From: Bacteroidales bacterium | Lineage (GTDB): Bacteria > Bacteroidota > Bacteroidia > Bacteroidales > P3 | DNA: 64,000 nucleotides | Assembly (NCBI GenBank): GCA_017522105.1 | Contig: JAFXAA010000030.1 | Location: 2,176 to 66,175 of the forward strand | Reading direction: 5' to 3' | Part shown: positions 5,388 to 57,000 of the stretch, piece after piece | How the letters are laid out: each line of letters opens with the position of its first letter | Numbering within the stretch: position 1 is the first letter of the stretch | Position numbers and translations under genes: made by a program | Notes under the pieces: generated by a model | Told to the model about the DNA's origin: nothing | The model's database searches: none | Seen by the model: only the letters and a program-made list of their open reading frames with translations

Positions 5388-7487
5388 TTATTGCTGCATG
5401 GTGGCGTAGAAACGGCGCGAGGCCTCCTCCTGGCGCGGCTTGCTGAAGTTGCTCACGCGGCGCAGGTAGCCGATGACGCGCGTCAGGTAGTCAACATTGT
5501 GAGAGTGACACTTGGGGCACTCCTTGAGGTAGCGCTTGTCGATGTGGCCACAGTCGTTGCAAATGGTGTTGGGAATGTTGAAGGTGAAGTAGTTGCATCC
5601 CTCCTTGGCCGCCACGTCGAGCAGCTGGCGGTACTGCTGTTGCGTGAGGTGCTCCTCCAGGTTGCAGTGCAGCGCCGAGCCGCCGGTGAGGTGCTCTATG
5701 TAGGGTGCGCCGTGCAGGCGGAACTTGTCGAGCACCGTCAGCGAGGTGTCCTCCACTATGTAGAAGTAGCTGTTGTAGCAGTCGCGCGGCACGAAGTAGC
5801 CGTCCTCGCGGTCCCACTTGGCATGCTTGACACCCACGTTCTCGGCCGGTATCATCTCGCAGTTGAACATCACCTCCTTTGTGCGGTATTCCTTGTTCTT
5901 CTTCTCCACAAGGCCGAGCACCGTCTGCACGAACTCGCGGTACTGGGGGTTGTCCGTGATGGGGATGCCCATGAACTCGGCGGCTTCCACCAGGCCGTTG
6001 ACGCCTATGGTGAGGTACTGGCGCGCTATGTTGATGTAGCCGGCGTCGAAGAGCGGCAGCATGCCGTGGGCCTGCAGCTCCTTGAGGTTCTCGTTGTAGG
6101 CCAGCTGCACCTTGTGGCAGAGGTCTATGATGTCGGTCAGGAAGACGCGGTAGTCCATGCCGTTGTTGACGGCGTACTGAATGCAGCGGTTGAGGTTGAT
6201 GGTGAGCACGCTCTTGGAACCCGTGCTGACGCCGCCGGCGCCGAGGGTGTAGCTGAAGCCGTTGTCGGTGATTTCGTTGCGCAGGCGGCAGCAGCTGCTG
6301 AGCGAGTCGGCGTTGTCGCTGATGTAGGTGAAGAAGGAATGGCCTTCGGCGTACATCTCGGCCGTGAAGTCGGCCATCTCCTTGTCCACGAACTGGCCAT
6401 CCTTGTCGTAGAGCAGCGCCATGGTCTCCACCGGGAAGGTGAGCACCGTCTTTGTGCGTTCGGCGTTGAACCAGCGCATGAAGCGTTTCTGCAGCCATTT
6501 CAGGCCCTCCCAGTCGGGCTCCGACCCGTCGGGGAAGCGGAACTCGCCGAAGATGCTCTCGAAATAGGGGCGGTCGTAGTAGGCTATGTTCCAGAACACC
6601 GACTGGTAGTTGCGCGCGCCGGTGGGCTGGTTGAGGCTGTAGACGATCTGCTCGAAGCAGTCGGTGACTATCTTGTCCATCGTCTTCTGCCGCAGGCTGA
6701 GGTCCACCACGCGGTCGGGCTCCTTCCAGTAGTCCTTGCCGTAGTCCTTCTGGATGAAGTAGTTGAGGTACATCAGGAACTCCGGCGTGGCGCAGGCGCC
6801 GCTGAGCATGGAGCTCACCATGAAGACCATGTTGATGAAGCCGCCGCAGAACGACTTGAGGTTGCTCGGGGCCGTGGAGTTGCCCCCGATGCTGACCGTG
6901 CCGCCGAGCAGCCACGGGTACATGGTGATGGAGGCGCAGTAGTTGGCCAGGCTCGTCTCGTCGTTCTTGTATATGAAGTGGTGCGTCAGCAGGTCTATGT
7001 AGCGGTCGGCCAGCTCCTTGCCGTACATCTTCTTGATGCGGTCCGTCAGCAGGCGGCGGTTGAGGCGTATGAAGCCGCTCTTCGGCAGCTCGCCGATGAG
7101 GGTGGCGATGTTCTTGTTCTCCACGTTGGCGTTGGCGTCGTACTTGCTGCCCGTGGCGGCGTTGGCGGCGTCCACATAGTCGGCCAGGAACTTCAGCTTC
7201 TCCAGGGTCTCGCGGTCCTCGGTGTGCTGCTGGCGGTAGAGCATGAAGCTCTTGGCCACGCTGTAGAAGCCCTCCTTCATCAGGGCCACCTCCACCTGGT
7301 TCTGTATCTCCTCGACGGTGATGCCGTTGTGGATGTCGAGGTGCGTCAGTATCTTCGACAGCTGCCCAAGGTCTACAGGCTCCTGCACCGAGCCGAAGGC
7401 CTTGACGATGGCATTCATGATTTTGTCAAGCGAGAAGCGTTCCACTTCGCCGCCGCGCTTGGTGATTGAGAGGGTATTGGTTTCCAT
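5388..7487 (-). CDS. nrdD: anaerobic ribonucleoside-triphosphate reductase (class III)
   Basis: C-terminal Zn ribbon CNDCGH...CPKCHS and glycyl-radical motif RVIGYL. The start is chosen at METNTLSITKRGG, 21 codons inside the track ORF. Confidence 0.95.
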   Translation of the reverse strand: METNTLSITKRGGEVERFSLDKIMNAIVKAFGSVQEPVDLGQLSKILTHLDIHNGITVEEIQNQVEVALMKEGFYSVAKSFMLYRQQHTEDRETLEKLKFLADYVDAANAATGSKYDANANVENKNIATLIGELPKSGFIRLNRRLLTDRIKKMYGKELADRYIDLLTHHFIYKNDETSLANYCASITMYPWLLGGTVSIGGNSTAPSNLKSFCGGFINMVFMVSSMLSGACATPEFLMYLNYFIQKDYGKDYWKEPDRVVDLSLRQKTMDKIVTDCFEQIVYSLNQPTGARNYQSVFWNIAYYDRPYFESIFGEFRFPDGSEPDWEGLKWLQKRFMRWFNAERTKTVLTFPVETMALLYDKDGQFVDKEMADFTAEMYAEGHSFFTYISDNADSLSSCCRLRNEITDNGFSYTLGAGGVSTGSKSVLTINLNRCIQYAVNNGMDYRVFLTDIIDLCHKVQLAYNENLKELQAHGMLPLFDAGYINIARQYLTIGVNGLVEAAEFMGIPITDNPQYREFVQTVLGLVEKKNKEYRTKEVMFNCEMIPAENVGVKHAKWDREDGYFVPRDCYNSYFYIVEDTSLTVLDKFRLHGAPYIEHLTGGSALHCNLEEHLTQQQYRQLLDVAAKEGCNYFTFNIPNTICNDCGHIDKRYLKECPKCHSHNVDYLTRVIGYLRRVSNFSKPRQEEASRRFYATMQQ

Positions 7488-7604
7488 ATATTGTGCTTGT
7501 TTTTCTATCCTTACTCCGGTCGCGGACAGGCACTGGCAAAACACGGGCACCGCATGGTGTTGGGTCTGACAAGTGGCTTGTTGCGCGAAAGCGTTGTCTA
7601 CGGC

Positions 7605-7795
7605 CTATGGCAGGTCTCCTGGCTTGCCTCCGCACGCCGCGCCTTCTCGGGGGGCGATATCCCCAATGGCTTCTTGCGGTGGCTCACAATCAGTGCTTTA
7701 CATTAATTGCACTGCACTCGTTGAGGCTCACAGTTGCGCGTCAGTCCGTGATTTTCACACGGTTCCCTATTGTCCGCACCGGGCGGGCCATAGCC
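7605..7795 (-). promoter_or_regulatory. cobalamin (B12) riboswitch in the nrdD leader
   Basis: The minus strand reads AAUAGGGAACCGUGUGAAAAUCACGGACUGACGCGCAACUGUGAG ... GCCAUUGGGG...CCGAGAAGGC ... AAGCCAGGAGACCUGCC (B12 box). Confidence 0.85.
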
Positions 7796-7807
7796 TTTTC
7801 GACGCTG

Positions 7808-7839: not shown

Positions 7840-7920
7840 TTTACTTATCCACACCGACCTGTTGATAATAACCTCCCTTCGGCAGGGTGTCGCCGTCCCT
7901 GCTCTGTTGCCCCGCCCGCC

Positions 7921-8050
7921 CTACGGACTTCCTACGGCTGTTCTACGGTTGTTTAACGGTTGTTCTACGGTTGTTCTACGGTTTAAACCGTTAAACAACC
8001 GTAGAACAACCGTTAAACAACCGTAGAACAGCCGTACAAACTCCGTTGCG
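7921..8050. repeat. family A palindromic element, copy 1 (11-nt CTACGGTTGTT-type units, centre GTTTAAAC)
   Basis: Arms of about 53 nt pair with a single 2-nt mismatch. The 103-bp core 7934-8036 is identical to 18421-18523. Confidence 0.95.
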
Positions 8051-8131
8051 GATGGGGCCAACAGGAGGCGGAAAAAGGGCACGGTGGAAAAAAAAGTGGC
8101 ATTTTTTTTTGCTTTTGTTTCGGGAAATATG

Positions 8132-13880: not shown

Positions 13881-14035
13881 AGTATGATAAGTTTATTTTT
13901 TTTTCGCATCGTCGTAGTCGGCAATGCGAACAGTTATATAGTTGCAATAGGGTAGGGCGGGGTGGGCGACAGCCATATGTCGCAGCCTCCAACAAGTGCC
14001 TTATAGACGCGAAAGCATTGCCGAAAAAATCGTAC

Positions 14036-14195
14036 AGGGCAGGTCTCCTGGCTTATCCCTCAAGGCCGAAGTCTTCTCGGAGACGCTTGTCTCCAATGAC
14101 GTTTGTTTTTCTGCCCATCAGCGGTGAATTACAGTTGCGCGACAGCTCATGATTTGCACATGATTCCCTCTTGGCAGCCCCATTACAAGGCTGAC
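14036..14195 (-). promoter_or_regulatory. cobalamin (B12) riboswitch
   Basis: The minus strand reads AAGAGGGAAUCAUGUGCAAAUCAUGAGCUGUCGCGCAACUGUAAU ... GUCAUUGGAGAC...CCGAGAAGAC ... UAAGCCAGGAGACCUGCC. Confidence 0.85.
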
Positions 14196-14268
14196 TCGGT
14201 CGATGTTATTATTTCAAAGTGCTGAATAATTGCCGTCTTGCGAAAGACCGTCTCTCAAAATGGCGATG

Positions 14269-16587: not shown

Positions 16588-17436
16588 ATGGCAAAAGAGA
16601 AACGACATAAAACATTGAAGGCCAAAGGGCAGAAGCATAAAGGAGGCCTCAAGCCGTGGGGCGCATTGAGCTTCGTGGGCAAGGTGTGGCGCGTGCTGTG
16701 GCTGACCGTCGTCACCCTGTGGCTCGTCACCGTGCTGCAGGTGCTCCTCGGCTGGTTCATCAACCCTCCGCTCACCCCCCTCATGGTGCAGCGCTTCTTC
16801 CAGCAGGTGGGCGACGGGGAGCGCGCAGTGCGCTTCGAGCGCGACTATGTGCCACTGGACAGCATCAGCAACAACCTGATTACCGCCGTTGTGTATGCCG
16901 AAGACGGTCTCTTCATGTATCACCATGGCTTCGACGTCAAGCAGCTCAAGGCCGCCTACCGCGAAAACAAGAGCGGCCGCCGCTTCCGCGGCGGGAGCAC
17001 CATCAGCAACCAGACGGCCAAAAACGCCTTCCTGCCGCACTCGCGCACCATGGCGCGCAAGGCCTTCGAGGCCTACTATACGGTTATGATAGAGGCCGTT
17101 TGGGGCAAGCGGCGCATCATGGAGGTGTACCTCAACATTATAGAGTTCGGCGACGGCATCTACGGCGCCGAGGCTGCCGCGCAGCACTACTTCGGCCACT
17201 CGGCCCGCCGTCTCACGCAGACAGAGGCCGCCCAGCTTGCTGCAACCCTGCCGGCACCCCTCAAGCGCAACCCCGCACACCAGACACCCTTCTTCCGCAA
17301 GCAGACCCAGCGCATCAAGGAACGCTTTAAGTGGGGTGCTGTAAACATTGATTTACCGATGGAAGAGCGCCGTGGTAGATACAAGGACCGCGAGACTCTG
17401 CTGGAGTTCTACCTATGGACGAAACGACAGAAATAG
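16588..17436 (+). CDS. mtgA: monofunctional peptidoglycan glycosyltransferase
   Basis: GT51 motifs AEDGLFMYHHGFD and RGGSTISNQTAKN. The start is placed at MAKEKRHK; the longer track ORF runs antisense into gap. Confidence 0.85.
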   Translation: MAKEKRHKTLKAKGQKHKGGLKPWGALSFVGKVWRVLWLTVVTLWLVTVLQVLLGWFINPPLTPLMVQRFFQQVGDGERAVRFERDYVPLDSISNNLITAVVYAEDGLFMYHHGFDVKQLKAAYRENKSGRRFRGGSTISNQTAKNAFLPHSRTMARKAFEAYYTVMIEAVWGKRRIMEVYLNIIEFGDGIYGAEAAAQHYFGHSARRLTQTEAAQLAATLPAPLKRNPAHQTPFFRKQTQRIKERFKWGAVNIDLPMEERRGRYKDRETLLEFYLWTKRQK

Positions 17437-18341
17437 AACGCACGTGGATGCGCTACCGGCGCGACTACGAAGCCTACCTTAAGCTTGAGCGCGGCATGGC
17501 CGACAACAGCGTGAAAGCATACATGCAGGACTTTACCCACATGCAGCAGTTCATGTGCGAGCAAGGCATTGCGCCAGAGCAAGTAGCACATGCCGACCTA
17601 CAGTGTTTGTTGAAGCAGTTGTGCGACCTTGGCATTGCCCCGGCATCGCAACGTCGTATGATTGCCGGCTGGCGCATGTTCTTCCACATGCTCGTAGTGG
17701 AGGACGTGCTCAAGGACAGCCCCGCCGCCCTCCTCGACCTGCCCATCAAGCCCAAGCACCTGCCCGATGTGCTCACCGACGACGAGGTCACGGCCATACA
17801 GGATACCTTTGACCGCAGCATCCCCGAAGGCGAGCGCAACTACGTGATTGTGGAGGTGTTGTACGGTTGCGGCCTGCGTGTGTCCGAGCTCGTCAACCTC
17901 AAACTCTCCAACATATACGTCGAAGAGCAGTACCTGCAGGTGATAGGCAAAGGCGACAAGGAACGGTGGGTGCCGATCAACGAACACGCCCTCAGGCTCT
18001 TGCTTGACTACATACACCTTGTGCGCAGCCATCAGGAGCCAACGCCAGGCGAGGAGAAGATAGTCTTCCTCAACCGCCGCGGGCACCGCCTGACGCGCCA
18101 GATGGTGTTCATCATGCTGCGCGACGCCGTTGCCAAGGCTGGCATAAAGAAAAAGGTGAGCCCCCATTCGCTGCGCCACAGCTTCGCCACCGAACTTGTG
18201 GAGAACGGGGCCGACCTCCGCTCTGTGCAGGAGATGCTTGGCCATGAAAGCATCAGCACCACAGAGATTTACACCCACCTCACCCGCGACACCCTGCGCA
18301 ACACCATCGCCGCCTACCACCCCCATTACGCCAAGCATTGA
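17415..18341 (+). CDS. xerD: site-specific tyrosine recombinase XerD
   Basis: Core-binding N-terminus plus HSLRHSFATELVENGADLRSVQEMLGHESISTTEIYTH. It overlaps the mtgA end by 22 nt. Confidence 0.85.
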   Translation: MDETTEIERTWMRYRRDYEAYLKLERGMADNSVKAYMQDFTHMQQFMCEQGIAPEQVAHADLQCLLKQLCDLGIAPASQRRMIAGWRMFFHMLVVEDVLKDSPAALLDLPIKPKHLPDVLTDDEVTAIQDTFDRSIPEGERNYVIVEVLYGCGLRVSELVNLKLSNIYVEEQYLQVIGKGDKERWVPINEHALRLLLDYIHLVRSHQEPTPGEEKIVFLNRRGHRLTRQMVFIMLRDAVAKAGIKKKVSPHSLRHSFATELVENGADLRSVQEMLGHESISTTEIYTHLTRDTLRNTIAAYHPHYAKH

Positions 18342-18418
18342 CGCCTCCGCCACCCCGTCGGCATGACCTGCGGCATGCCCCTCCGCTCCCTTTTTTGTCC
18401 CCATCCTCACCGGCCCCG

Positions 18419-18536
18419 GTACGGCTGTTCTACGGTTGTTTAACGGTTGTTCTACGGTTGTTCTACGGTTTAAACCGTTAAACAACCGTAGAACAACCGT
18501 TAAACAACCGTAGAACAGCCGTAGGGACTCCGTAGA
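18419..18536. repeat. family A palindromic element, copy 2
   Basis: 18421-18523 is identical to 7934-8036. The right terminus GCCGTAGGGACTCCGTAG is complete and the left terminus is truncated. Confidence 0.95.
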
Positions 18537-18652
18537 GGGGCCGCGGGGGGCATGGAGGGTTGCCGGTGCGATGGAGTGTTGGTGGAGGTGTTGAATGTCA
18601 GATGATTGGTGCAAAATCGGCATTTTTTTACTGTAATATGGAAAAATAATTA

Positions 18653-18660
18653 TAATTTTG
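18653..18660 (+). promoter_or_regulatory. -7 box TAATTTTG (rex)
   Basis: Lies 27 nt before the ATG at 18687. Confidence 0.55.
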
Positions 18661-18686: not shown

Positions 18687-19382
18687 ATGAAAGACAAGCA
18701 CAACTCACTGGTTATTTTGAAGTCCACGCTCAGCCGCCTGCCGTCCTACTATTGTTTTGTGGAGGAGCGCAAGGCCGCTGGCGAGGAGTATGTCTCGTCG
18801 GTTGCCATGGCAGAGAGCCTTGGCATCAATCCTGTACTTGTGCGCAAGGATTTGGCGAGCATCAGCAGGGAGCCCGGGCGTCCCAAGGTTGGATTCAGGG
18901 TGGAGACCCTGCTGGCTGACATGAAGAAGTACCTCGGCTACGACCACTATGACGAGGCGGTGCTTGTCGGGGTCGGTGCCCTGGGCCACGTGCTGCTGCA
19001 GTACGGCGGCTTTGCCAACTACGGCCTCGGCATTGTGGCGGGGTTCGACAAGGAGCCGTGTTCGGCCACGGTCGGCGGGCGCCCTGTGCTGCCGGTCGAG
19101 AAGCTGGTGTCGTTCCTTCGCCGCACACATATAGGTATAGGTATTATAGCCGTGCCTGCGCGCGAGGCGCAGAAGGTGGCGCAGATGTTGATTGACGGTG
19201 GCGTGCGTGCCATCTGGAATTTCGCACCGACGACCCTTGAGCTGCCGCGTGAGATACTGGTGAAGAACGAGAACCTGGCGGCGTCGCTCGCCGCTCTGAC
19301 CACCGAGCTGCGCCGCCGCATTGGCGGCGGCGGGGTGGATGAACCGCCCGCGGTGGATAAAAAAACGATAAAAAAGTATTGA
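18687..19382 (+). CDS. rex: redox-sensing transcriptional repressor Rex
   Basis: Winged-helix N-terminus (LSRLPSYYCFVEE...VSSVAMAESLGINPVLVRKDLA) and a Rossmann motif VGVGALGHVLL. Confidence 0.85.
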   Translation: MKDKHNSLVILKSTLSRLPSYYCFVEERKAAGEEYVSSVAMAESLGINPVLVRKDLASISREPGRPKVGFRVETLLADMKKYLGYDHYDEAVLVGVGALGHVLLQYGGFANYGLGIVAGFDKEPCSATVGGRPVLPVEKLVSFLRRTHIGIGIIAVPAREAQKVAQMLIDGGVRAIWNFAPTTLELPREILVKNENLAASLAALTTELRRRIGGGGVDEPPAVDKKTIKKY

Positions 19383-19399
19383 TTTTTGAAATAAAGTTG

Positions 19400-19407
19400 T
19401 ATATTTG
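19400..19407 (+). promoter_or_regulatory. -7 box TATATTTG (hydrogenase cluster)
   Basis: Followed by an ~85-nt leader before the ATG at 19496. Confidence 0.5.
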
Positions 19408-19495
19408 CATCGCAAAACAGGGAAGCGAGAATGGTGGAGGAGTCGGATTGACAGCCTGTTAGATGAAAATTGACAACAATAAAAATCAATAAAAA

Positions 19496-19795
19496 ATGAC
19501 GATAAAGGTTTGTGTCGGCAGTTCATGCCACCTGAAAGGATCATACGATGTGATTGAGGCCTTCACCGAGGTGCTCAAGAAATACGATGTTGAGGATGTA
19601 GTGGAGCTGCAGGCGAGCTTTTGCCTCGGCCACTGCGCCAAGGGTGTGAATGTGGCCTGCGAGGGCGTCGTTCCCGCCGCCCACGGTTCCCAGGTGGAGG
19701 AGACCCCCGAGGGATTCATACTGCACAACGTCAGCGCCGGCAATGTGGAAGAGTTGTTTGCCAGCGAGATATATCCCAAACTGAACCTGAATTAG
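19496..19795 (+). CDS. thioredoxin-like [2Fe-2S] ferredoxin domain protein
   Basis: Cys pattern CVGSSCHLKG ... CLGHCAKG, typical of NuoE/HymA-like 2Fe-2S modules. Confidence 0.7.
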   Translation: MTIKVCVGSSCHLKGSYDVIEAFTEVLKKYDVEDVVELQASFCLGHCAKGVNVACEGVVPAAHGSQVEETPEGFILHNVSAGNVEELFASEIYPKLNLN

Positions 19796-19884
19796 GACTA
19801 CATGCGGTCGTGTGTGTGTCCCGCGGCAAATGCCGCAGGGCGGGTTTGCGATTGCTCCACTATATAATATATTAAGGAAAAACC

Positions 19885-21639
19885 ATGTCAGAATATCTTG
19901 AATTCCGGACGGTGCAGTGCAAGGACTGCTACCGTTGCCTGCGCGAGTGTCCTGTGAAGGCAATAAACATCAAGGATCACCACGCTCAAATATTGGAAGA
20001 CCACTGCATACTGTGCGGCCATTGCACGAAGGTGTGCCCCCAGAAGGCCAAAATAGAGCACAGCGAGCTGCCCGTGGTGCGCGAGTTGCTGCGCAGCGGA
20101 GCCCGCGTGGCGGCCACGGTGGCGCCGTCGTTCATCAGCAGCCTCGGGCAGGAGGACTTTTCGGAGCTGCGCATAGCGCTGGCCAAGCTTGGCTTCGCCG
20201 TGGCCGAGGAGACTGCTGTGGGCGCGCAGGCTGTGGTGGAGGAATACAAACGGGTGCTAAAAACGGGAGAGATGAGGAACTTCATAACCTCTGCTTGTCC
20301 GGCGGCGTGCCGCCTTATCCAAATGTACTACCCCAAAGCTCTCCCGTACCTTGCCCCCGTTGACTCGCCCATGGTGGCGCACGCCAAGATGCTGCGCAAG
20401 GGCGATCCCGGACTGAAGGTGGTTTTCATCGGGCCCTGCATAGCCAAGAAGCGCGAGGCCGACGAGCATGGCATAGACGCCGTGCTCACTTTCGACGAGC
20501 TGCTGACCCTCTTCCGTGAGAGCGGCATCGACCTGGCGAACATCAACAAGCTGGCTGTGGGTTCCGACAACGGTTGCGCCAACCGTGCCAAGGCATTCCC
20601 TGCCACACAGGGCATCATCCGTTCGTTCGACGCGTTGCCCGAGGGCTACCGCTACCTTGCTGTGGACGGGGTGGACCGCCTGGCCGGGGTGCTGGAGAAC
20701 ATTGAGAGCCTGGACCATGTGTTCATTGAGATGAATGTGTGCCCCGGAGGCTGCATCAACGGCCCTTGTGCCATAGAGAACGAAGGGGGCTTGATGAAGG
20801 CCGAGGCCGACATCGACGCTTATGTGGAGCGCGAGATGGCCACGCGCAAGCACGCTCCCGCTCCCGACGCCGGGGTGTCGTTGGCCTATGCCTACCCGCG
20901 GCTGCGCGCCAAGAGCCGTCCGGCCACGGAGAAAGAGATAGAGGATGTGCTGCACCGCACCGGCAAGTTTTCGCCTGCCGACGAGTTGAACTGCGGTGCT
21001 TGCGGCTACAGCACGTGCCGCGAGAAGGCTTGGGCTGTGGTCAACGGCTATGCCGACATAGACATCTGCCTGCCATATATGCGCAAGCGAGCCGAGAGCC
21101 TTGCTGTGGACATAGTGCGCAACTCGCCCGAAGGCGTGGTGCTGGTGGACTCGGACATGAATATTGTGGACATCAACGCCTCGGCCATGAAGATGCTTGG
21201 CCTTGGCGGCACACCGGAGAGCGTGCAGGGGCACCCCATGGCGGAGAACTTCCAGCCAATAGATTTCTACAATGCCTACACGAAGAAATGCCGCACAGAG
21301 AACCCGTGCATCCACATCGCTGCCACCGACCGCTATGTGAGCCTCACGGTGAGCAACCTCAGCGAACAGAATCTGTTGTTTGGCCTTATGAAGGACATTT
21401 CGGAGCAGGTCAACTATGAGAAGAAGCTCGACAAGGTGAAGGCGGACACCATAGCCACCACCGACAACCTAATCATGAAGCAGATGCGTGTGGTGCAGGA
21501 GGTGGCGTCCCTTCTCGGCGAGACCACGGCGGAGACCAAGGTGGCCCTGATGAACCTGAAGAACATGCTTGCCGACGGCCATTCGGACCTGCGCTCCGAC
21601 GGGCGGCCAACAGATTGGAAGACAGCGAAAAAGGAGTGA
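19885..21639 (+). CDS. sensory [FeFe]-hydrogenase-like protein with C-terminal PAS domain (HydS-type, group C)
   Basis: Two 4Fe-4S motifs at the N-terminus. H-cluster motifs are TSACP (Ala in place of the proton-relay Cys), GPCIAKKRE and MNVCPGGCINGP. There is an extra 4-Cys motif, CGACGYSTC...C, then a PAS-like segment. Confidence 0.85.
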   Translation: MSEYLEFRTVQCKDCYRCLRECPVKAINIKDHHAQILEDHCILCGHCTKVCPQKAKIEHSELPVVRELLRSGARVAATVAPSFISSLGQEDFSELRIALAKLGFAVAEETAVGAQAVVEEYKRVLKTGEMRNFITSACPAACRLIQMYYPKALPYLAPVDSPMVAHAKMLRKGDPGLKVVFIGPCIAKKREADEHGIDAVLTFDELLTLFRESGIDLANINKLAVGSDNGCANRAKAFPATQGIIRSFDALPEGYRYLAVDGVDRLAGVLENIESLDHVFIEMNVCPGGCINGPCAIENEGGLMKAEADIDAYVEREMATRKHAPAPDAGVSLAYAYPRLRAKSRPATEKEIEDVLHRTGKFSPADELNCGACGYSTCREKAWAVVNGYADIDICLPYMRKRAESLAVDIVRNSPEGVVLVDSDMNIVDINASAMKMLGLGGTPESVQGHPMAENFQPIDFYNAYTKKCRTENPCIHIAATDRYVSLTVSNLSEQNLLFGLMKDISEQVNYEKKLDKVKADTIATTDNLIMKQMRVVQEVASLLGETTAETKVALMNLKNMLADGHSDLRSDGRPTDWKTAKKE

Positions 21640-22830
21640 ATGCATAATCGGGAGAATGAAAGAGCTATGAAGGAATTGTGTATTGAATACGGCTTCACGT
21701 CGCTGAACCACTATGGCGAGGAGTTGTGCGGCGACAATGTGGAGATGTGTGTCAACGGCGAGTGGACCACGCTGGTGCTCGCCGACGGACTGGGCAGCGG
21801 AGTGAAAGCCAATATCCTCTCCACGCTCACCAGCAAGATACTGTGCACCATGGTGGCCGCAGGGGCCGACATCGAGGAGTGCGTGGAGACGGTCATACAG
21901 ACCCTGCCGGTGTGCAAAGAGCGCCAGGTGGCGTACAGCACCTTCTCTGTCATCCATGTGGACAACCACGGCAAGGGGCATCTCTTTGAGTTTGACAACC
22001 CCGAGGCTATCTGGTACCACGCCGGTCACACGCAGAACTTTCCGCGCATGGAGAAAGAGATATGCGGCAAGAAGGTGTACATCACCGAGCTTGAGCTTGA
22101 GGCCGGCGACATGGTCTTTGTCATGAGCGACGGCACCATACACGCAGGCATAGGCCAGATACTGAATTTCGGCTGGCAGCGCAAAGAAATCATGCAGCAT
22201 CTCGACGCCAACATAGACCCCCACATGTCGGCCCGTGCCGCCGCCTGCCTGCTGGCATCGGCCTGCAACGACCTGTACCTCGACCGTCCCGGCGACGACA
22301 CCACGGTGGCTGCTGTGCGCATACGACCGCGCACCGAGGTGCACATCATGGTGGGTCCGCCGGTTGACAAGGAGCGCGACGCCGAATATGTGGCGAAATT
22401 CATGGAAGGGGCTGACAAGCGCATAGTCTGCGGCGGCACCACGTCGCAGGTGGTGGCACGCTGCATCGGGCAGAAGTTGAAGACATCGTTTGACTTTCCC
22501 GACCGCGAGGTGCCGCCCATAGGCTTCATTGACGGCATCGACCTTACCACCGAGGGGGTCATTACCCTGCGCCGTCTGCTGGCGCTGTCGGAGAGGTATG
22601 TGTCGGTGAAAGACCTGACGCCCAAGACGTACAGCAAGAAGGACGGTGGGTCGCTGCTGGCCAACATTATCTTCGAGGAGAGCACGCATGTGGTGTTCTT
22701 TGTGGGTCAAAATGTCAACGCAGCCCATCAGGGGCTTGACATAGACATCACCATGAAGCTCAAACTTGTGGAGCGCCTGGCAGAGAACCTGCGCCGCATG
22801 GGTAAACAAGTAACTGTCAACTACGACTAA
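21640..22830 (+). CDS. SpoIIE/PP2C-family serine phosphatase
   Basis: GEELCGDNV...LADGLGSGVKANILS...VMSDGTIHAG. The start abuts the upstream stop (TGAATG). Confidence 0.8.
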   Translation: MHNRENERAMKELCIEYGFTSLNHYGEELCGDNVEMCVNGEWTTLVLADGLGSGVKANILSTLTSKILCTMVAAGADIEECVETVIQTLPVCKERQVAYSTFSVIHVDNHGKGHLFEFDNPEAIWYHAGHTQNFPRMEKEICGKKVYITELELEAGDMVFVMSDGTIHAGIGQILNFGWQRKEIMQHLDANIDPHMSARAAACLLASACNDLYLDRPGDDTTVAAVRIRPRTEVHIMVGPPVDKERDAEYVAKFMEGADKRIVCGGTTSQVVARCIGQKLKTSFDFPDREVPPIGFIDGIDLTTEGVITLRRLLALSERYVSVKDLTPKTYSKKDGGSLLANIIFEESTHVVFFVGQNVNAAHQGLDIDITMKLKLVERLAENLRRMGKQVTVNYD

Positions 22831-22838
22831 AGTGATAT

Positions 22839-24302
22839 ATGGAACAGAAATTATTTGACACCAACGTACAGTGGATTAAATACAAAGTGCTCAAGGAGGT
22901 CATTCGCCGGGCCTATGAAGGCGGGCTGGACGAAGCATATCTTGAAATACCCAAAATAATCAGCCCGGGGCCGAAATCGGAGCTCAACTGCTGCATATAC
23001 AAGGAGAGGGCCATTGTGCAAGAGCGCATACACATGGCCATGGGCGGTGACAAGGATAACCCGAATCCTGTGCAGGTCATGGAGATAGCATGTGACGAGT
23101 GCCCCGCAGCAGGCATGCTTGTGACCGAGGCATGCCGCGGGTGCATGATGCATGCCTGCAAGGATGTGTGTCCGCGCGATGCCATCACTATCGTCAACCA
23201 TCGCTGCACAATAGACAAGAGTAAATGCATAGAGTGCGGACGCTGCTCGCAGGCATGTCCATACAGCGCCATCATTGCCCAGCACCGCCCATGCATGAAG
23301 AGTTGCAAGGTGAAGGCCATATCCATCAACAGTGACGACAAAGCCGTCATAGACAACACGAAGTGCATATCGTGTGGAGCCTGCGTGGTCAGTTGTCCTT
23401 TCGGCGCCATCACCGACAGGTCGCATGTGCTGGACATTATAGACATTCTCAAGGGCTCGGATGGCAACAGCAGATACCGTGTGTATGCAGTCATTGCGCC
23501 GGCCATCGTAAGCCAGTGCCGTTTCGGACGCATAGGACAAGTGGTTACAGCCATTAAGCAGCTTGGGTTCCACCAGGTTGTAGAGGCAGCCCTCGGTGCC
23601 GACATCACCCTGTACAATGAGGCACGGGAGTTCAAGGAGAAGGCTGAGCACATGGCGGAGCCTGTAATGACTACGTCGTGCTGTCCGGCGTTTGTGTCCT
23701 TTGTTGAAAAGAACTTCCCGGAATATCGCGATGCCATCTCGACCTCGGTGTCACCCATGGTGATGGCAGCAAGGCTCATAAAACGCTCCGACCCGACGGC
23801 GAAGGTGGTGTTTATAGGCCCTTGCGCGGCCAAAAAGTCGGAGTATACGCTGCCGAAGACAGGCGGGATGATTGACAGCGTGATGTCGTTTGAGGAGCTG
23901 CAGGCTTTCGTTGATGCCAGGGGTATAGACACCACAAAATGCGAGGACACCAACCTTGACAATGCATCCTATTATGGCAGGATTTTCGCCAAGAGCGGAG
24001 GTTTGTCGCAAGGGGTGGCTTATGTGGCGTCGCAACTGGGCATAGACGGGGTGAAACCGCTTGCCATGAACGGCATAGACCAGTGCAGGCAGCACCTTTC
24101 GCTGCTCCGTGCGCACAAGGCCACGGCAAATTTCTTCGAGGGTATGGCCTGCGATGGTGGCTGCATAGGCGGACCGCTGAGCATCACGCGGTCGCCGCGC
24201 AATGTTGTCGATGTGGACCAGTATGGCAATTCGGCCAAGGAGAAAAACATCGACGGGTCGGTGCGCCTGTATCAGATGACGTTCCCGGAAACACAAGAAT
24301 AA
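22839..24302 (+). CDS. catalytic [FeFe]-hydrogenase with multiple N-terminal FeS clusters
   Basis: Canonical H-cluster motifs TSCCPAF, GPCAAKKSE and EGMACDGGCIGGP, plus several CxxCxxCxxxCP ferredoxin motifs. Confidence 0.9.
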   Translation: MEQKLFDTNVQWIKYKVLKEVIRRAYEGGLDEAYLEIPKIISPGPKSELNCCIYKERAIVQERIHMAMGGDKDNPNPVQVMEIACDECPAAGMLVTEACRGCMMHACKDVCPRDAITIVNHRCTIDKSKCIECGRCSQACPYSAIIAQHRPCMKSCKVKAISINSDDKAVIDNTKCISCGACVVSCPFGAITDRSHVLDIIDILKGSDGNSRYRVYAVIAPAIVSQCRFGRIGQVVTAIKQLGFHQVVEAALGADITLYNEAREFKEKAEHMAEPVMTTSCCPAFVSFVEKNFPEYRDAISTSVSPMVMAARLIKRSDPTAKVVFIGPCAAKKSEYTLPKTGGMIDSVMSFEELQAFVDARGIDTTKCEDTNLDNASYYGRIFAKSGGLSQGVAYVASQLGIDGVKPLAMNGIDQCRQHLSLLRAHKATANFFEGMACDGGCIGGPLSITRSPRNVVDVDQYGNSAKEKNIDGSVRLYQMTFPETQE

Positions 24303-36066: not shown

Positions 36067-36186
36067 CATCTTTCCTACCATCTGCAACTTCCATGCCAAA
36101 AGTTGTTATCAACATCCCCGTGTCAATACCACCGTCCGCCGTTGTACGCGGCTCCACTTTCTCCTGCCTCCCCATGCATCCTCACC

Positions 36187-36311
36187 GGAGTCCCTACGGC
36201 ATTTCTTCAGTAGTTCTTCAGTAGTTCTTCAGTAGTATTTCAGTGTTTGACTGAAGAACTACTGAAGAACTACTGAAGAACTACTGAAGAAATGCCGTAC
36301 CGGCTCCGTAC
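36187..36311. repeat. family B palindromic element, copy 1 (11-nt TTCTTCAGTAG units)
   Basis: GGAGTCCCTACGGCATT-(TCTTCAGTAGT)x3...loop TTTCAGTGTTTGAC...(CTACTGAAGAA)x3-ATGCCGTACCGGCTCCGTAC. Confidence 0.95.
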
Positions 36312-36410
36312 TGCTGCCGTCGCAGTTTGCGACACTTCTGTTTGTCAGTGCGTTGTCTCGGTGTTCATAAATAGTGCGCTTTTTGCTGCCGAAGTTTGCA
36401 AAATATTTCG

Positions 36411-41017: not shown

Positions 41018-41992
41018 TTATCTGACGCCGTAGGCTGGTGCCGACTTGGGCAGCGGCTCGAATGCTTTGTTCAGTTTCTTGTCCTTGAGGCGGCCCTGAG
41101 CGCCGTTGCGCAGTTCCCACTTGCCGTCGATGAAGGCATAGGCCAGCTCGAGCCCCGAAGGCACATAGTACTGGAACAGGCCTTCCATGCCGGGCACCTG
41201 CGGCCCCACCTCGTCGAAGATTATCATTTTCTCTTTGTGCTGTTTGCGTTTTTCCTCGGTGCGGTAACGGTTGGTGCCGCGCACCTTGACGCGCTGGCGC
41301 TGAACCTCCTCGACGTACTGCTCCTCGTAGCCGAGGTTGACCATGGCGTCGTTGCGATATTCCAGCACCACCCGGCGCAGGTTGCGCTCGCGGCGGAAGA
41401 GCGGGGCGCCGAACTGCGGCACGCCGCCGCGGAGTATGACGGGTTCTATTATCTTGCGTTCGGTGAGGTTGTCCACGCCGTTCCAGCCCAGCAGTGTGTA
41501 GTAGGTCTTGTCACCGTGCGAGGTCTGTATTATCTCCTGGTACACAGCTCCGAGCCAGTTGTCGGGCGTCAGCAGCGACTCCTCGCGGTTCATAATCTCC
41601 TCGCTCTTGTCGTTGAGCAAGCGATACTGGTACTCCTCCTCGCGCTCGTTGTAGAACTGCACAGCCCCGAAGCATTCGTACTCGCCGTTGTCGCGCACCA
41701 CGGCCCAGGTGAAGATGCGGAGCATCGCATCCGGCGACGTGAGCACCGAAGCCACTGTGGGCAGCTGCCATTTCCATCGTTCCGAAGCGTCTTCTTCCAA
41801 GGCCGCCGACAACTCGCCCACGGCCTGCTCCGATGCCAGGTAGCGCTCGTTGTCGGTGGGTGCTGTGGCTGTGAGTACGAGGAGCTCGGACAGACGCTGC
41901 TGGTGGAGCGCCATGCGCCCTTTGTCCTGCGCCGCCGCAACCGCCGGCACCATGGCCAGCAGCAACACCAAGGCTGTTATTCTGCATTTCAT
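41018..41992 (-). CDS. hypothetical secreted protein
   Basis: Signal peptide MKCRITALVLLLAMVPAVAAAQD. Codon usage matches neighbouring genes. No recognisable motif. Confidence 0.7.
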   Translation of the reverse strand: MKCRITALVLLLAMVPAVAAAQDKGRMALHQQRLSELLVLTATAPTDNERYLASEQAVGELSAALEEDASERWKWQLPTVASVLTSPDAMLRIFTWAVVRDNGEYECFGAVQFYNEREEEYQYRLLNDKSEEIMNREESLLTPDNWLGAVYQEIIQTSHGDKTYYTLLGWNGVDNLTERKIIEPVILRGGVPQFGAPLFRRERNLRRVVLEYRNDAMVNLGYEEQYVEEVQRQRVKVRGTNRYRTEEKRKQHKEKMIIFDEVGPQVPGMEGLFQYYVPSGLELAYAFIDGKWELRNGAQGRLKDKKLNKAFEPLPKSAPAYGVR

Positions 41993-42075
41993 TACCCTCT
42001 CTTAACGCCGGATGTTTTTATTTATTGTATAAAAGTTACGAACAGCCGTTGTTGAACGCCGCCTCTATGGCTTTT

Positions 42076-42185
42076 CTACGGAGTCCCTACGGCCGTTCTT
42101 CAGTAGTTCTTCAGTAGTTCTTCAGTCAAACACTGAAGAACTACTGAAGAACTACTGAAGAACGGCCGTAGGGGCTCCGTACCGG
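42076..42185. repeat. family B palindromic element, copy 2 (inverted loop orientation)
   Basis: CTACGGAGTCCCTACGGCCG-(TTCTTCAGTAG)x2-TTCTTCAGT-caaac-ACTGAAGAA-(CTACTGAAGAA)x2-CGGCCGTAGGGGCTCCGTACCGG. Confidence 0.95.
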
Positions 42186-42385
42186 ATGCGGTGGAGAGAG
42201 TGTGTGTATGGAACCCTAATAGGGTTATGATATGTTTGGTTGTATGTTGCTGACTATTAAAACGAAACCCATACGGGGTATTGGTGTGGCTGATGGGCGG
42301 AGGGGCGGCTGTCAATGGATGGTGCCTGTGCGGTATTGCGGCCGAAGGTGGATAAAAAAAGAGCTGTTGGAACGGAAAAAAATCG

Positions 42386-44912: not shown

Positions 44913-44961
44913 CAAGCGGAAAGAGAGACAAGGATTGCAGGCTGAAGCCTGTGTATCATAC

Positions 44962-45067
44962 GGTTGGGCAAGTCTTATACGACCAGCTCCCATTGAATCC
45001 CCCAGGGTAGGAATACAGCAAGGGTGTTTGGTTGTAGCGGTGCGATATAAACAGCTTGCCCTTTTTT
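44962..45067 (+). ncRNA. ffs: signal recognition particle RNA (small bacterial SRP / 4.5S type)
   Basis: Helix-8 signature at 45004-45020: AGG-GUA-GGAA-UAC-AGCA, i.e. a GGAA tetraloop flanked by the symmetric-loop AGG/AGCA. The closing helix is GGGCAAG (44966-72) / CTTGCCC (45055-61), followed by T6. A promoter lies upstream. The 5' boundary is uncertain. Confidence 0.65.
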
Positions 45068-45076
45068 AGTGCATAT

Positions 45077-46189
45077 ATGACAAACCAAGAGACTATAAAA
45101 GACCTGAGTGCCCGCAAGGAGGCATTGAGAAAATTCCTCGACATCGAGGCCACGGCGGCATGGATTGCCGAGGAAGAGAAGAAGACGGAAGCGCCCGACT
45201 TCTGGAACGACCCCAAGGAGGCGCAGAAGGTGGTGAAAGGCATCAACGCCAAGAAGGTGTGGGTGACGGCATTCAAGGATGTGGACGAGGTGTGTGGCGA
45301 CCTTGAGGTCATGGGCGAGTTCTTTGAGGCCGGCGATGCCACCGAGGAAGAGCTTCTGGCCCAGATAGCCACCACCCAGAAGAAGGTGGAGGAGTTGGAG
45401 TTCAAGAACATGCTGCGCAACGAGAGCGACCGCCTCGACGCCGTGCTTTCCATCAACGCCGGAGCCGGCGGTGTGGAAGCGCAGGACTGGGCCGAGATGC
45501 TGATGCGCATGTACATACGCTATGCCGAGACACATGGCTACAAGGTGGCAATCAGCAACAGCCTTGACGGCGAAGGCGCTGGAATAAAGAGCTGCACACT
45601 TCAGATAGAGGGCGACTTCGCCTACGGCTACCTGAAGAGTGAGACGGGTGTGCACCGCCTGGTGCGCGTCAGTCCCTTCAACGCCCAAGGCAAACGCATG
45701 ACGAGCTTCACCAGCGTCAGCGTCACACCGCTCATCGACGACACCATAGAGGTGGTCGTGGACATGTCGAAACTCTCTTGGGACACCTTCCGCAGCGGCG
45801 GCGCCGGCGGACAGAACGTCAACAAGGTGGAGAGCGGCGTGCGCCTGCGCTACCAGTACAAAGACCCCTACACCGGCGAGGAGGAGGAGATACTCATTGA
45901 AAACACCGAAACGCGCGACCAGCCGAAGAACAAAGAGAACGCCCTGCGCCTGCTGCGCTCGCAGCTCTACGACCGCGAGATGAAGCACCGCATGGAGGAG
46001 AAAGACAAAATCAAGGCCTCGCAGAAGAAGATCGAGTGGGGCTCGCAGATACGCAGTTATGTGATGGACGACCGCCGCGTCAAGGACCACCGCACCAACT
46101 ACCAGACCAGTGACGTAGCCGGTGTACTCGACGGCAAGCTCGACGAGTTCATCAAAGCCTACCTGATGCAGTTCGGCGCCGACGCCTGA
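45077..46189 (+). CDS. prfB: peptide chain release factor 2 (uninterrupted ORF)
   Basis: SPF tripeptide (RVSPFNAQG) and GGQ motif (SGGAGGQNVNKVE). The start is placed at MTNQETIKDL. Confidence 0.9.
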   Translation: MTNQETIKDLSARKEALRKFLDIEATAAWIAEEEKKTEAPDFWNDPKEAQKVVKGINAKKVWVTAFKDVDEVCGDLEVMGEFFEAGDATEEELLAQIATTQKKVEELEFKNMLRNESDRLDAVLSINAGAGGVEAQDWAEMLMRMYIRYAETHGYKVAISNSLDGEGAGIKSCTLQIEGDFAYGYLKSETGVHRLVRVSPFNAQGKRMTSFTSVSVTPLIDDTIEVVVDMSKLSWDTFRSGGAGGQNVNKVESGVRLRYQYKDPYTGEEEEILIENTETRDQPKNKENALRLLRSQLYDREMKHRMEEKDKIKASQKKIEWGSQIRSYVMDDRRVKDHRTNYQTSDVAGVLDGKLDEFIKAYLMQFGADA

Positions 46190-51225: not shown

Positions 51226-51257
51226 ATATTTTTGACATTCCTTCCCTGCGTATCCCC

Positions 51258-51388
51258 CACGGAGCCCCTACGGCATTTCTTCAGTAGTTCTTCAGTAGTT
51301 CTTCAGTAGTATTTCGGTGTTTGACTGAAGAACTACTGAAGAACTACTGAAGAACTACTGAAGAAATGCCGTAGGGGCTCCGTAGGGG
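51258..51388. repeat. family B palindromic element, copy 3
   Basis: The core differs from copy 1 by one substitution (TTTCGGTG vs TTTCAGTG). The 17-nt termini ACGGAGCCCCTACGGCA / TGCCGTAGGGGCTCCGT are perfectly complementary. Confidence 0.95.
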
Positions 51389-51479
51389 ATTGGGGGCAGA
51401 ACTGTGGAATGTAGGCGGTGTCGAAATGTTAAATTTTAGGAAAATTCACCGTCGGGCTTGTCGTGTTGGGGAAATTTCG

Positions 51480-51487
51480 TATCTTTG
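51480..51487 (+). promoter_or_regulatory. -7 box TATCTTTG
   Basis: ATG codons follow at 51491 and 51497, i.e. 4 and 10 nt after the box. Confidence 0.55.
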
Positions 51488-51490
51488 CAC

Positions 51491-54065: not shown

Positions 54066-57000
54066 ATGAACAGATATAGGACAAGAATGAGAGGTGGCGT
54101 GACGCTTCGACTGGCAGCGTGCCTGCTGGCGGTTGTGTGTTGCCTCCTTTCGGCCACGGCGCAGAACACTACCCACGGCTACCTGCGCTTCGACCTGCCC
54201 ACCGACGTGTGTGCGGGCACCACGCAGACCTTCCGCTTCGGCTACAACGCGCAATTCAACGTGGTGTTCGACCTGCCGCAGGCGTCGCAGAGCCATGCCG
54301 AGCGGGCCTTCCTACCCGACGGCGTGTCATGTTCGCCCTACGGCTGCTCCTACCGTTCCAACGTCACATTCAGCAGCTTCGCCCCCGGTGCGACGCTGAC
54401 TTCAGTGCAGGACATCAAGTATGTGCGTGTTAACATGGAACACAGCTGGATAGGCGACTTGTACATCGGTATCGTCTGCCCTAACGGGCAGCGCGCGAGC
54501 CTGATGAACTGGAGCGGCGACGGCAGCAGCAGCTGCGACGACGAGGTGCCTGCGGGTCACCGCACCTGGGTGTCGGGCAGCAATGTGAGCAACGGAACAT
54601 ACCTCGGCAACCCTTATGATTACTCAAACTCTTTATACCCCTGCGATTCAACAAACAGTAACAACCAGCCAGGCTCTGGCTGGAACTACTGCTGGAGCAA
54701 CAACACCACGAGCGGCTATCAGTATGCCAGCGGCGACGGGCGCATCTACCGTTTGGCCAACCGTACGGGAAGCAGCATCGACAGCAGCAATGTGGCGCTG
54801 GGACGCAAGTTCTACCATCCTGACCAGAACTTCAGCAGCCTCACAGGGTGCCCGCTGAATGGCAACTGGTATATTGAAGTTATCGACGCTTGGAGCGGCG
54901 ACAACGGCTGGATATTCGACTGGGAGCTGGCGCTCAACCCCAACCTGCTGCCCACGGACTGCGCCCTGCTGAAGCGCGAGGTGATAGGGGCGCGTGTGAC
55001 AAGGCAGAACGACTCGACCTACCGGTTCTCGGCTCCGTCGGTGACACACGATTCCGTGTTCCCCGTGACGTTCAGGATAGTGAGCACCTGTGGCGACACC
55101 ATTGACAGCACGGCCTACATCACCGTGCACCCGAAATACAACATCACCGAATACGACACGGCGTGCGACAGCTACACCCTTTTCGAGCAGACCTACACGC
55201 ACGACATCATGGTGGTCAAGCACTTCACTTCGGTGGGCAACTGCGACAGCACCATGCGCTACCGCCTGCACATACTGCATTCCGACCAGACAGAAGTGCA
55301 CGACACTGTGCTGCAGAACCAGCTGCCCTACGTGGTGGACGGCGAGACCCTGGTGCCGGCGCTCCCGCCACTGCCACCCTACCCCTCCGGCGGAGCCACG
55401 CTGCTCGACACCACGCTGCTGAGGACCAACCGCACGGGGTGCGACAGTACGGTGAGCATGACGCTTTTCGTGTGGTACAACATAGCCGACACGGTGGACA
55501 GCACCGTATGCCGACACCAGCTGCCGCTGACGTGGAACGGCGTGGAGTTCGTCGACGCAGGCCAACAGACCGTCACGCTGACGGGCAGCCACGGAGTGGA
55601 CAGCCTGCTGACGATGCGGGTGGCCGTGATAGAGGACACTCGGCTTGACGTGCACGACACCGTGGTGGAAAACCAGCTGCCATGGGGCCTCGACGGACAC
55701 GAAACCTTTGCCGGCGACACCGCCGTTGAATACATGACTGTCAATGCGGGAGGCTGCGACAGCCTGATAACATACAGCCTGCATGTGTGGCGCAACAGCC
55801 TCGACTCCATAGACAGCACCGTATGCCGACACCAGCTGCCGATAGAGTGGAACGGACTGACGTTTGCCGACGCCGGGGTGCAGACGCTGATGCTGGCCGA
55901 CGTGCACGGCGCCGACAGCGTGACGGTGATGACCCTCGCCGTGAACGAAGACAACCTGGGAGAATGGAGCGACACGGTGGTGGAGAACAACCTGCCGTGG
56001 CCGGGAGTGGAAGGCTTCGAACCGCTGACAGGCACCACAGACACGCTGTACCTGCTGCAGAACGCCGCAGGATGCGACAGCCTGCTGCACTACTCGCTGC
56101 ACGTGTGGTGGAACCGCAGGACGGAGATAGACAGCTCGGTGTGCCGTCACGAGCTGCCGGTGGTATGGAACGGAGAGACTTTCGGCGACAGCGGCACCAA
56201 GACAGTGACACTGGCGGAAAGCCACGGTGCGGACAGTCTCGTGGTGATGACGCTGAGTGTGAGGGAAGATACCTACAATGATATAAAAGACACTGTGGTG
56301 GAGAACAACCTGCCGTGGATGCGTTCAGGCATCGGTACCTTCGACACCATAGCCGACACGGCTATTATGCTGGCCAACGCCCAAGGATGCGACAGCATCG
56401 TGAGCTTCAGCCTGCACGTGTGGTACAATGTGGAAGAAAGCTTCGACACTGTGGTGTGCGACAACGTGTGGCCGCTGGTGTGGCGTGGTGCGCGCTTCAA
56501 TGGCGGCAGCACCGTACAGCGCACACTCTACAACGCCCATGGAGCCGACAGCACCGTGCACCTGACGGTGACGGCCATGCCGGTGTACGACAGCACCATA
56601 GAAGCCGAGACCTGCGACAACACAGGATACGTGCACGACGGACAGACCCTGCGGAGGAATGGCGTCTTCCGCTTCATGTACACCACGGCGGCGGGTTGCG
56701 ACAGCCTCGTCCGCATCAGTCTTAGGGTATGGCCGACAGCGTCGGAGAAGGACTATGACACAGTGTGCCTCTCGGAACTGCCCTACTCATGGGAAGGACA
56801 ATCTCTGTTCTATGGCGGCAAGTCGGACATAACATCCACCGTCATGATGGCCACCGTGCACGGATGCGACAGCGTGAGGAGCCTCAGCCTCGCCGTAAAG
56901 GGCATATACCTCATGGCCCGGCCGCACATAACACCCACCGTGGTGACCCTCGAAGACCCGAAGATTGTATTCAACGACAACAGTCGCGACGCCACCAGCC

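Follow-up and report, generated by a model that had tools for sequence, protein, structure and literature searches.

How two intergenic sequences about 10.5 kb apart come to share a long identical centre is the question raised by positions 18,419–18,536 of the 64,000-nucleotide stretch of Bacteroidales DNA analyzed here, the whole of which we refer to as the window. An earlier note on this DNA had reported that 18421–18523 matches 7934–8036 base for base. The exact match is borne out and extends one base further left, so that 18420–18523 equals 7933–8036: 104 bp are identical, centered on a palindrome axis that divides them into arms of 52 nt. This core is a perfect palindrome save for two apex-proximal mismatches, and these are the same in both copies, A1 (7910–8059) and A2 (18397–18546), which implies that A1 and A2 derive from each other or from one source. 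Matched as inverted repeats, the two loci agree at 88% over 152 nt. Chance is excluded as the reason for their likeness by an 18-nt terminus motif alone, which has seven matches in the window against 0.04 expected.

Each copy is a near-perfect palindrome of ~150 bp with a predicted single-strand fold energy of −102 to −123 kcal/mol (z −14 to −20) over the window copies, A2 standing at −102 kcal/mol and z = −14. Units of 11 nt, set head to tail and in phase, make up each arm: Tandem Repeats Finder returns a period of 11, and the autocorrelation peaks at lag 11 (0.69) and lag 22 (0.61), values at other lags not exceeding 0.41. All arm units vary on the theme YTGTTYWWCGG. Read from outside to inside, an arm comprises degenerate pyrimidine-rich units, C.CC.CATCC., CNACGGAGYCC, CTACGGC..TT, three to four core units and the apex. 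The outer units, which make up the shell, are rich in GC and differ from site to site; the inner core units are homogeneous, and degeneracy increases toward the outside of the arm. CCGTAG recurs in the window shells and in the A units. The element as a whole forms one continuous duplex of ~65 bp with a loop of 0–7 nt and contains no REP-sized internal hairpins. The axis of A2 falls between 18471 and 18472, with three shell and ~4.7 core units of 11 nt per arm, as seen from the register table, the fold and the inverted-repeat matches; its core (18420–18523) is built from the units CTACGGTTGTT and TAACGGTTGTT.

A2 had been described as lacking its left terminus, and A1 and A2 as reciprocally truncated. 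Alignment and the register table place all outer units on the left of A2 in 11-nt register: its left shell (18397–18419) reads GTCCCCATCCT CACCGGCCCCG G and is diverged, with the junction G|TACGGC into the core. These units are substituted, agreeing with the consensus CTACGGAGTCCCTACGGC at 11 of 18 positions, and several of the variants recur in a further copy, B1, which has CACCGG on its left and CCGGTACGGC on its right. Because the left end of A2 is complete though substituted, and some of its substitutions are found in B1 as well, the reading of reciprocal truncation is wrong; the right terminus of A1 (CAACGGAGTTT G|TACGGC) is likewise substituted, not truncated. The right shell of A2 (18524–18546) reads GGGACTCCGTAGAGGGGCCGCGG and is also present in strains that carry another filling at this site. 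The flanks, thought to be unrelated, are so beyond ~75 nt from the centre, but the 22–26 nt that border the core on either side belong to shell units that are homologous and have diverged. The distances given for the neighboring genes hold up: the stop codon of the upstream xerD-like tyrosine recombinase gene (17415–18341, + strand) ends 78 nt before the core, and the Bacteroidetes-type −7 box of rex, TAATTTTG (18653–18660, + strand), lies outside and downstream of A2, ~117 nt past 18536, close to the ~115 nt of the earlier note.

Five full elements lie in the window; all seven terminus-motif matches fall within them, and the window holds no shell-only small palindromes. B1 (36172–36322), with core unit CTTCAGTAGTT, loop GTTTG and the same shells, lies between clpB (−) and argS (+); B2 (42054–42204), with three core units per arm and loop CAAAC, between the hypothetical gene 41018–41992 (−) and priA (+); and B3 (51246–51396) between a formiminotransferase-cyclodeaminase (FTCD) gene (−) and a T9SS cargo gene (+). 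The B copies have CTTCAGTAGTT in place of CTACGGTTGTT and shells as in the A copies, and we regard A and B copies as one superfamily. A sixth copy, of B type and with loop GTGAC, is found ~3.7 kb past the right end of the window, at 16725–16829 of the conspecific contig L104, giving six copies in ~72 kb. Among the B-type loops GTTTG, CAAAC and GTGAC, the first two are mutually reverse-complementary.

A1 sits between the divergent promoters of nrdD, with its B12 riboswitch, and of a P5C-dehydrogenase gene, and B1, B2 and B3 also lie between divergent genes, making four of the five window copies; A2 sits between the co-directional xerD and rex. The whole window contains only 29 Bacteroidetes −7 motifs (TAnnTTTG), and correctly oriented boxes, marking predicted promoters, flank the elements externally at 28–107 nt and point away from them. 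Gene orientation was counted with a heuristic gene caller over window and metagenome loci, the raw count for the 25 elements with genes on both sides being 15 divergent, 10 tandem and 0 convergent against a background of 25/115/25. The caller is imperfect and had scored A1 as tandem, whereas Pfam and the riboswitch show it to be divergent, which corrects the count to 16 divergent, 9 tandem and 0 convergent. Divergent spacers are also the longest spacers, so that this bias fits tolerance or targeting and function alike. Pfam annotation of essentially all window genes returned housekeeping genes throughout, with no transposase, RAYT or integrase besides xerD.

Several other features of the neighborhood were noted. 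The riboswitch upstream of the anaerobic ribonucleotide reductase gene nrdD is a cobalamin riboswitch at 7592–7807 (−), and a second one at 14021–14214 (−) lies upstream of an operon encoding an acetyl-CoA hydrolase-like protein, a periplasmic binding protein and an acyltransferase. The genes that come after rex in 18687–24302 encode a NuoE-like 2Fe-2S protein, a PAS-containing [FeFe]-hydrogenase-like protein, a SpoIIE-type phosphatase and a second [FeFe] hydrogenase; this gene set is kept in the relatives L077 and L078, and the genes downstream of rex may form a redox-sensing hydrogenase cluster. A Bacteroidales small SRP RNA (113 bits) occupies 44959–45065, directly upstream of a release-factor gene, and its 3′ end is overlapped by the listed ORF 45056–46189, whose true start codon therefore probably lies further downstream. 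Two adjacent paralogous T9SS cargo genes (P_proprotein, CHU_C) at 51458–54022 and 54066–57428 have internal repeats of ~153–318 nt and share segments of 81–300 nt that are 73–86% identical between them. Tandem repeats of 60 and 78 nt (~4 and 2.4 copies, 90–97% matches) at 63215–63650 lie within ORF 62803–63903 (−), which encodes an InlB B-repeat and DUF6383. Its counterparts are 1469 aa with BspA-type LRRs in L104 and 613 aa in L105, and these differing sizes indicate that the length of this surface-protein gene varies among strains.

A hairpin of this length might act in RNA, as a terminator, mRNA stabilizer, RNase III site or small-RNA precursor, and the very stable predicted fold, the position of A2 3′ of xerD and weak Rfam matches would fit such a role. 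Those matches, obtained at E ≤ 1 around A2, are all sub-threshold hits to generic miRNA-precursor hairpins and score far under the gathering scores; at gathering score, the search of the whole window placed no RNA family over the elements. The terminator scan found no terminator and no T-run, most copies lie outside predicted transcripts (four of the five between divergent promoters) and none occupies a convergent spacer. Base pairing was compared in ten elements of different families: 96.8% of cells are paired, 26 of 51 pairs have changed on both sides, and 82 double-change cells stand against seven one-sided (wobble) cells. Since selection on an RNA would tolerate G–U pairs, this almost purely Watson–Crick covariation argues for copying of a DNA palindrome rather than for an RNA helix. 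A role in RNA is thus very improbable, and we take the element to act at the DNA level. An intrinsic terminator or structured RNA family was rejected as an identity for the element on the terminator and Rfam results and on promoters that lie outside and point away. Integron attC sites were also considered, GTTTAAC/GTTAAAC fitting RYYYAAC/GTTRRRY, and were dismissed: the neighbors of the copies are housekeeping genes, no cassette array is present, and the unit sequence by itself produces the motif. Copy number, size and context ruled out dif/Xer sites, invertible promoters and iterons.

What has happened at fixed sites can be read from related strains. The window is 100% identical to the rumen metagenome scaffold L002 (ENA ERZ28653856, scaffold_1269) over 20.9 kb, and the flanks of other conspecific contigs match it at ~98%. 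At the A2 site, the window has its right shell and downstream DNA in common with L074 (Rex 98%) and L073, at 98.4% from 18517 onward; these two carry between xerD and the right shell a non-homologous filling of 139 nt, which is 11-nt periodic, contains CCAGCCGTCTA three times and is poorly palindromic. The window segment non-homologous to this allele, 18330–18516, comprises the last xerD codons, the 78-nt spacer, the left shell and the A core. XerD ends in HYAKH* in the window and in HYKK* in L073, L074 and the outgroup L077, which marks the window allele of 18330–18516 as derived. In L077, a related species with 82% Rex identity, the xerD–rex spacer is empty. The alternative allele as a whole (L074 118–300 and L073 1655–1840, corresponding to window 18342–18546) consists of ~17 consecutive 11-nt units in unbroken register and is not a palindrome; an 11-nt periodic array can therefore occur here without mirror symmetry. 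L073 13–1645 is only 84% identical to window 16709–18329 (xerD and upstream), rising to 95–98.6% downstream of the element, so that a boundary of a recombination mosaic coincides with the element. A similar switch, from 90% to 98.7%, is seen in L005 together with loss of the acetyl-CoA hydrolase gene.

The B sites vary in their centres. At the B3 site, L091 has three units per arm and the loop GTTTG where the window has four units and CAAAC in the same orientation, and in L092 an imperfect apex unit has been made perfect. At the B2 site, L080 carries a B1/B3-type junction (GGCATTTCTTC) in one arm, together with a flipped loop, and the native junction in the other; L083, L088 and L089 have the B3-type right junction GAAATGCC directly beside B2-specific flank. 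This junction and flank fit within one 31-nt stretch, and the variant would be real at read level if Logan contigs are, as we presume, built from 31-mers. Short-read contigs mostly end inside the elements (at the xerD, B2 and B3 flanks), which makes loop orientation and some of the chimeras assembly-sensitive. Copies at fixed sites thus differ between strains in ways that need transfer from copy to copy, and we take the loop, unit-number and junction patterns to be the product of ectopic gene conversion between copies.

The earlier note had offered recent mobility, gene conversion or strong selection as explanations for the identical core. Conversion of the centre now has direct support in conspecific strains, which at the same sites show chimeric junctions, flipped loops and other unit numbers, and in a xerD–rex site at which conspecific strains have a non-homologous filling but a common right shell. 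Since A1 and A2 have different shells, recent transposition of the whole element does not explain this pair. Nor is there support for site-specific purifying selection: the elements evolve more rapidly than their flanks, which are ~98% identical, and in another lineage one orthologous copy, in the metagenome contig L064, has a decayed arm. That similar copies were collapsed or bubble-popped during metagenome assembly, giving a spurious identity, is hardly credible: palindromic repeats are hard to assemble and most short-read contigs do break within the elements, but the same sequence runs across A2 and/or A1 in three independent assemblies from different samples (L002, L003 and L004), the more divergent strain L005 has matching partial copies, and the copy-specific shells are preserved, so that the copies were not merged wholesale.

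Other rumen Bacteroidales contigs carry related elements at unrelated loci. Scanning metagenome contigs for the A-core pattern gave 61 loci, ~30 of which are on rumen-type contigs of 51–64% GC and are palindromes with the same core units in other shells (CTCCGNCCCCT...). About half of the metagenome matches were set aside because they are tandem arrays running in one direction, on marine or low-GC contigs. These arrays of the 11-mer CCGTAGAACAA or ACGGTTGTTC (L015–L071, which are Ga0115005 contigs, and L029, L041, L044, L051 and L070), one set of which comes from a single sample at ~56–63% GC and another has 19–23% GC, were taken to be unrelated satellites. Among GTDB species representatives, a pattern requiring both window termini, and hence very specific to the window's shell type, found one locus, in the uncultured Bacteroidales bacterium RUG061, with a third core unit, CCCCCCTTCGG. 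Viral contigs gave no matches to the A- and B-core patterns, and blastn of A2 gave none in plasmids. The theme YTGTTYWWCGG is also seen in elements outside the search pattern, namely the B copies, L001, L056b and L100. In the last of these, from a related species, two small shell-less palindromes of 11-nt units (6486–6547 and 6589–6636), with units TTGTTCTTCGG (loop AAAAAAG) and CGTTCTTCTCA, lie upstream of a P5C-dehydrogenase promoter; L100 and A1 precede the same P5C-dehydrogenase gene, and the left neighbor gene differs.

Comparison of orthologous sites shows elements that stay in place and change. In the syntenic contigs L001 and L043, whose coding DNA is ~72% identical, an element occupies the same spacer in both and the cores differ. 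In L064 one arm has decayed to ~70% identity (manual count), the whole L063–L064 alignment standing at 76%, and a decayed arm at an orthologous site speaks against strong site-level selection. The elements are absent from the 10–21 kb read of each of the closest relatives that could be sampled (L077–L079 and L101–L103, at 76–91% protein identity).

The elements resemble MITEs in being ~150 bp long, non-coding (the 11-nt period excludes coding), multi-copy (six in ~72 kb) and endowed with inverted repeats along whole arms. An all-against-all BLASTP of the ORFs of 30 metagenome loci found no gene recurring beside them other than orthologous housekeeping neighbors, and the ~72 kb of genome read contains no HUH/Y1 gene. 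Inspection of the edges of the five copies showed no direct repeat; degenerate units blur the outer boundary there. The xerD–rex site yielded no clean insertion junction, L077 being empty and the conspecific strains having another filling, and the only empty site, in L077, is at 82% Rex identity, with no precise one in close relatives.

We consider it probable, at roughly 60%, that these elements are a selfish family of DNA palindromes of the MITE/REPIN class whose centre is overwritten by ectopic gene conversion. A trans-acting enzyme would have carried the family to many intergenic sites upstream of promoters within an uncultured lineage of rumen Bacteroidales. Each copy would then persist at its site while other copies overwrite its central part again and again. 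The likely trigger is that the apex of the hairpin or cruciform is processed and then repaired from a homologous copy, and conversion would start at the apex and extend outward over variable distances. The palindromic arms would let a donor align either way round, which would account for the flipped loops and the paired change of unit number in both arms, and conversion of the centre would leave an identical 104-bp centre inside shells diverged by substitution. Overwriting of the centre is seen directly in the B copies; for A1 and A2 we infer it. What counts against this reading is that no mobilizing enzyme, visible target duplication or precise empty site in a close relative was found, and for the same reason transposition itself is something that we infer.

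The main rival is insertion of an inner unit at the apex of older copies. On this account an inner palindrome (TACGGC...GCCGTA, 104 bp in family A) would build up onion-like layers by nested transposition, and one such unit would have inserted recently into two old shells, giving A1 and A2. The ends of the A1/A2 tract at TACGGC...GCCGTA, symmetric and at mirror-image positions in both arms of both copies, would fit a discrete insertion of this kind too, as would the end of the B1/B3 identity near the same TACGGC boundary, the outward degeneration of units and the fact that shells begin with TACGG as well. Shells without an inner unit are nevertheless missing from the window, where all seven terminus motifs belong to the five full elements. 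The chimeric B2 alleles have a single converted arm, and junction variants lie inside the supposed unit, so that internal recombination end-points are needed in any case; the inserting enzyme would again have no known candidate. We hold nested insertion to be rather unlikely.

The strong location bias and the cross-species 11-mer theme could point to a host function instead: helically phased 11-bp binding-site arrays and/or a cruciform upstream of promoters, with selection keeping the core, for example by working as a supercoil sink, by insulating divergent promoters from each other or by giving a regulator or nucleoid protein a place to bind. Of the window copies four of five are divergent, as are about 16 of the 25 two-sided cases, and none is convergent, but divergent spacers are simply the longest and most permissive. 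The 11-nt period equals the helical repeat of supercoiled bacterial DNA. TGTTTA-N5-TGTTTA resembles, as a lead only, direct repeats of the OmpR/PhoB type. YTGTTYWWCGG recurs beyond the search pattern (B copies, L001, L100, L056b), and two lineages have elements upstream of the same P5C-dehydrogenase promoter with differing left neighbors. Set against this, the distance from element to −7 box varies (28–107 nt), the flanking genes are unrelated housekeeping genes, close relatives lack elements at the same promoters (L077, L101–L103) and one orthologous copy has a decayed arm. Moreover, units differ between families and are homogeneous within an element, a pattern of concerted evolution and not of site conservation. 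A host cis-element is accordingly an unlikely explanation. Equally doubtful is a bolder proposal, in which self-correcting, helically phased palindromes would extrude as cruciforms between divergent promoters, acting as topological insulators or a protein platform, with apex repair keeping them perfect as they 'home' into one another; were it true, they would represent a novel type of genome-structuring element in Bacteroidales.

If our preferred reading of a selfish palindrome family homogenized by conversion is right, long perfect palindromes occur about once per 12 kb in uncultured rumen Bacteroidales, a density taken from ~72 kb only, and they provide a natural system for the tolerance and homogenization of palindromes of more than 100 bp, with inter-copy conversion, loop inversion and paired-arm unit changes. 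The elements are the break points of most short-read contigs at three sites (the xerD, B2 and B3 flanks), a practical matter for metagenome assembly. They also adjoin promoters of core genes (nrdD, rex, clpB, argS and priA), where cruciforms or recombination could alter expression and gene order.

A family of ~150-bp palindromes built from 11-nt units in uncultured rumen Bacteroidales is apparently undescribed: we found no published description in the searchable literature, though bulk catalogues of Bacteroidota MITEs may contain it, and arms of 11-nt units were not found described for REP, REPIN, BOX or BrickBuilt elements. The family behaves as MITEs and REPINs do and has a modular build like that of BrickBuilt and BOX. 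REP and REPIN sequences, mobilized by RAYT transposases (Y1, IS200/IS605-like), are likewise short, non-coding, palindromic and intergenic, with many copies per genome; they too are kept at orthologous sites and evolve as a within-genome population. REPs and REPINs have no target duplication, and none is visible here. REPs sit mostly at gene 3′ ends, whereas the present copies lie upstream of promoters. A REPIN consists of two REP hairpins of ~20–25 nt and a spacer, and the continuous ~65-bp duplex of 11-nt tandem units found here does not have that structure; nor does the ~72 kb read here contain a RAYT gene, which in REPIN–RAYT systems is single-copy and usually flanked by REPs. REPs carry a conserved GTAG (or CGTC) tag at one end (PMC3733652). 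GTAG occurs in the terminal units of the window (CCGTAG), but the shells of the related rumen elements read ACGGAG and lack it.

The BrickBuilt MITE of Porphyromonas gingivalis is also from Bacteroidales, strictly intergenic and promoter-near, and is likewise modular, with a variable number of spacer-less tandem units between a leader and a tail with inverted-repeat ends; promoter activity has been reported for it (PMC4596501). By that description BrickBuilt units are 23 nt long and unidirectional, which sets them apart from the 11-nt units in two inverted arrays seen here (PMC4596501). The BrickBuilt and present elements have no sequence similarity. Modular repeats of other phyla offer a further parallel. 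BOX elements of Streptococcus pneumoniae combine boxA, a variable number of boxB and boxC, and similar modular repeats are known as Correia, RUP and ERIC. All are modular and intergenic with stem-loop potential between their ends, their mobilizing enzyme is unknown or acts in trans, and neighboring genes are affected. BOX-like elements differ in a 45-nt internal unit that is not mirrored, in their imperfect hairpins and in having no sequence relation to ours. The present family can also be compared with long perfect palindromes studied as substrates of SbcCD and recombination in E. coli, where near-perfect palindromes exceeding 100 bp, with a 0–7-nt centre, are expected to extrude as hairpins or cruciforms, to be cleaved at the apex and to be repaired by recombination. 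Those palindromes are engineered or accidental, single and unstable, whereas the present ones persist as an entire family in a natural genome.
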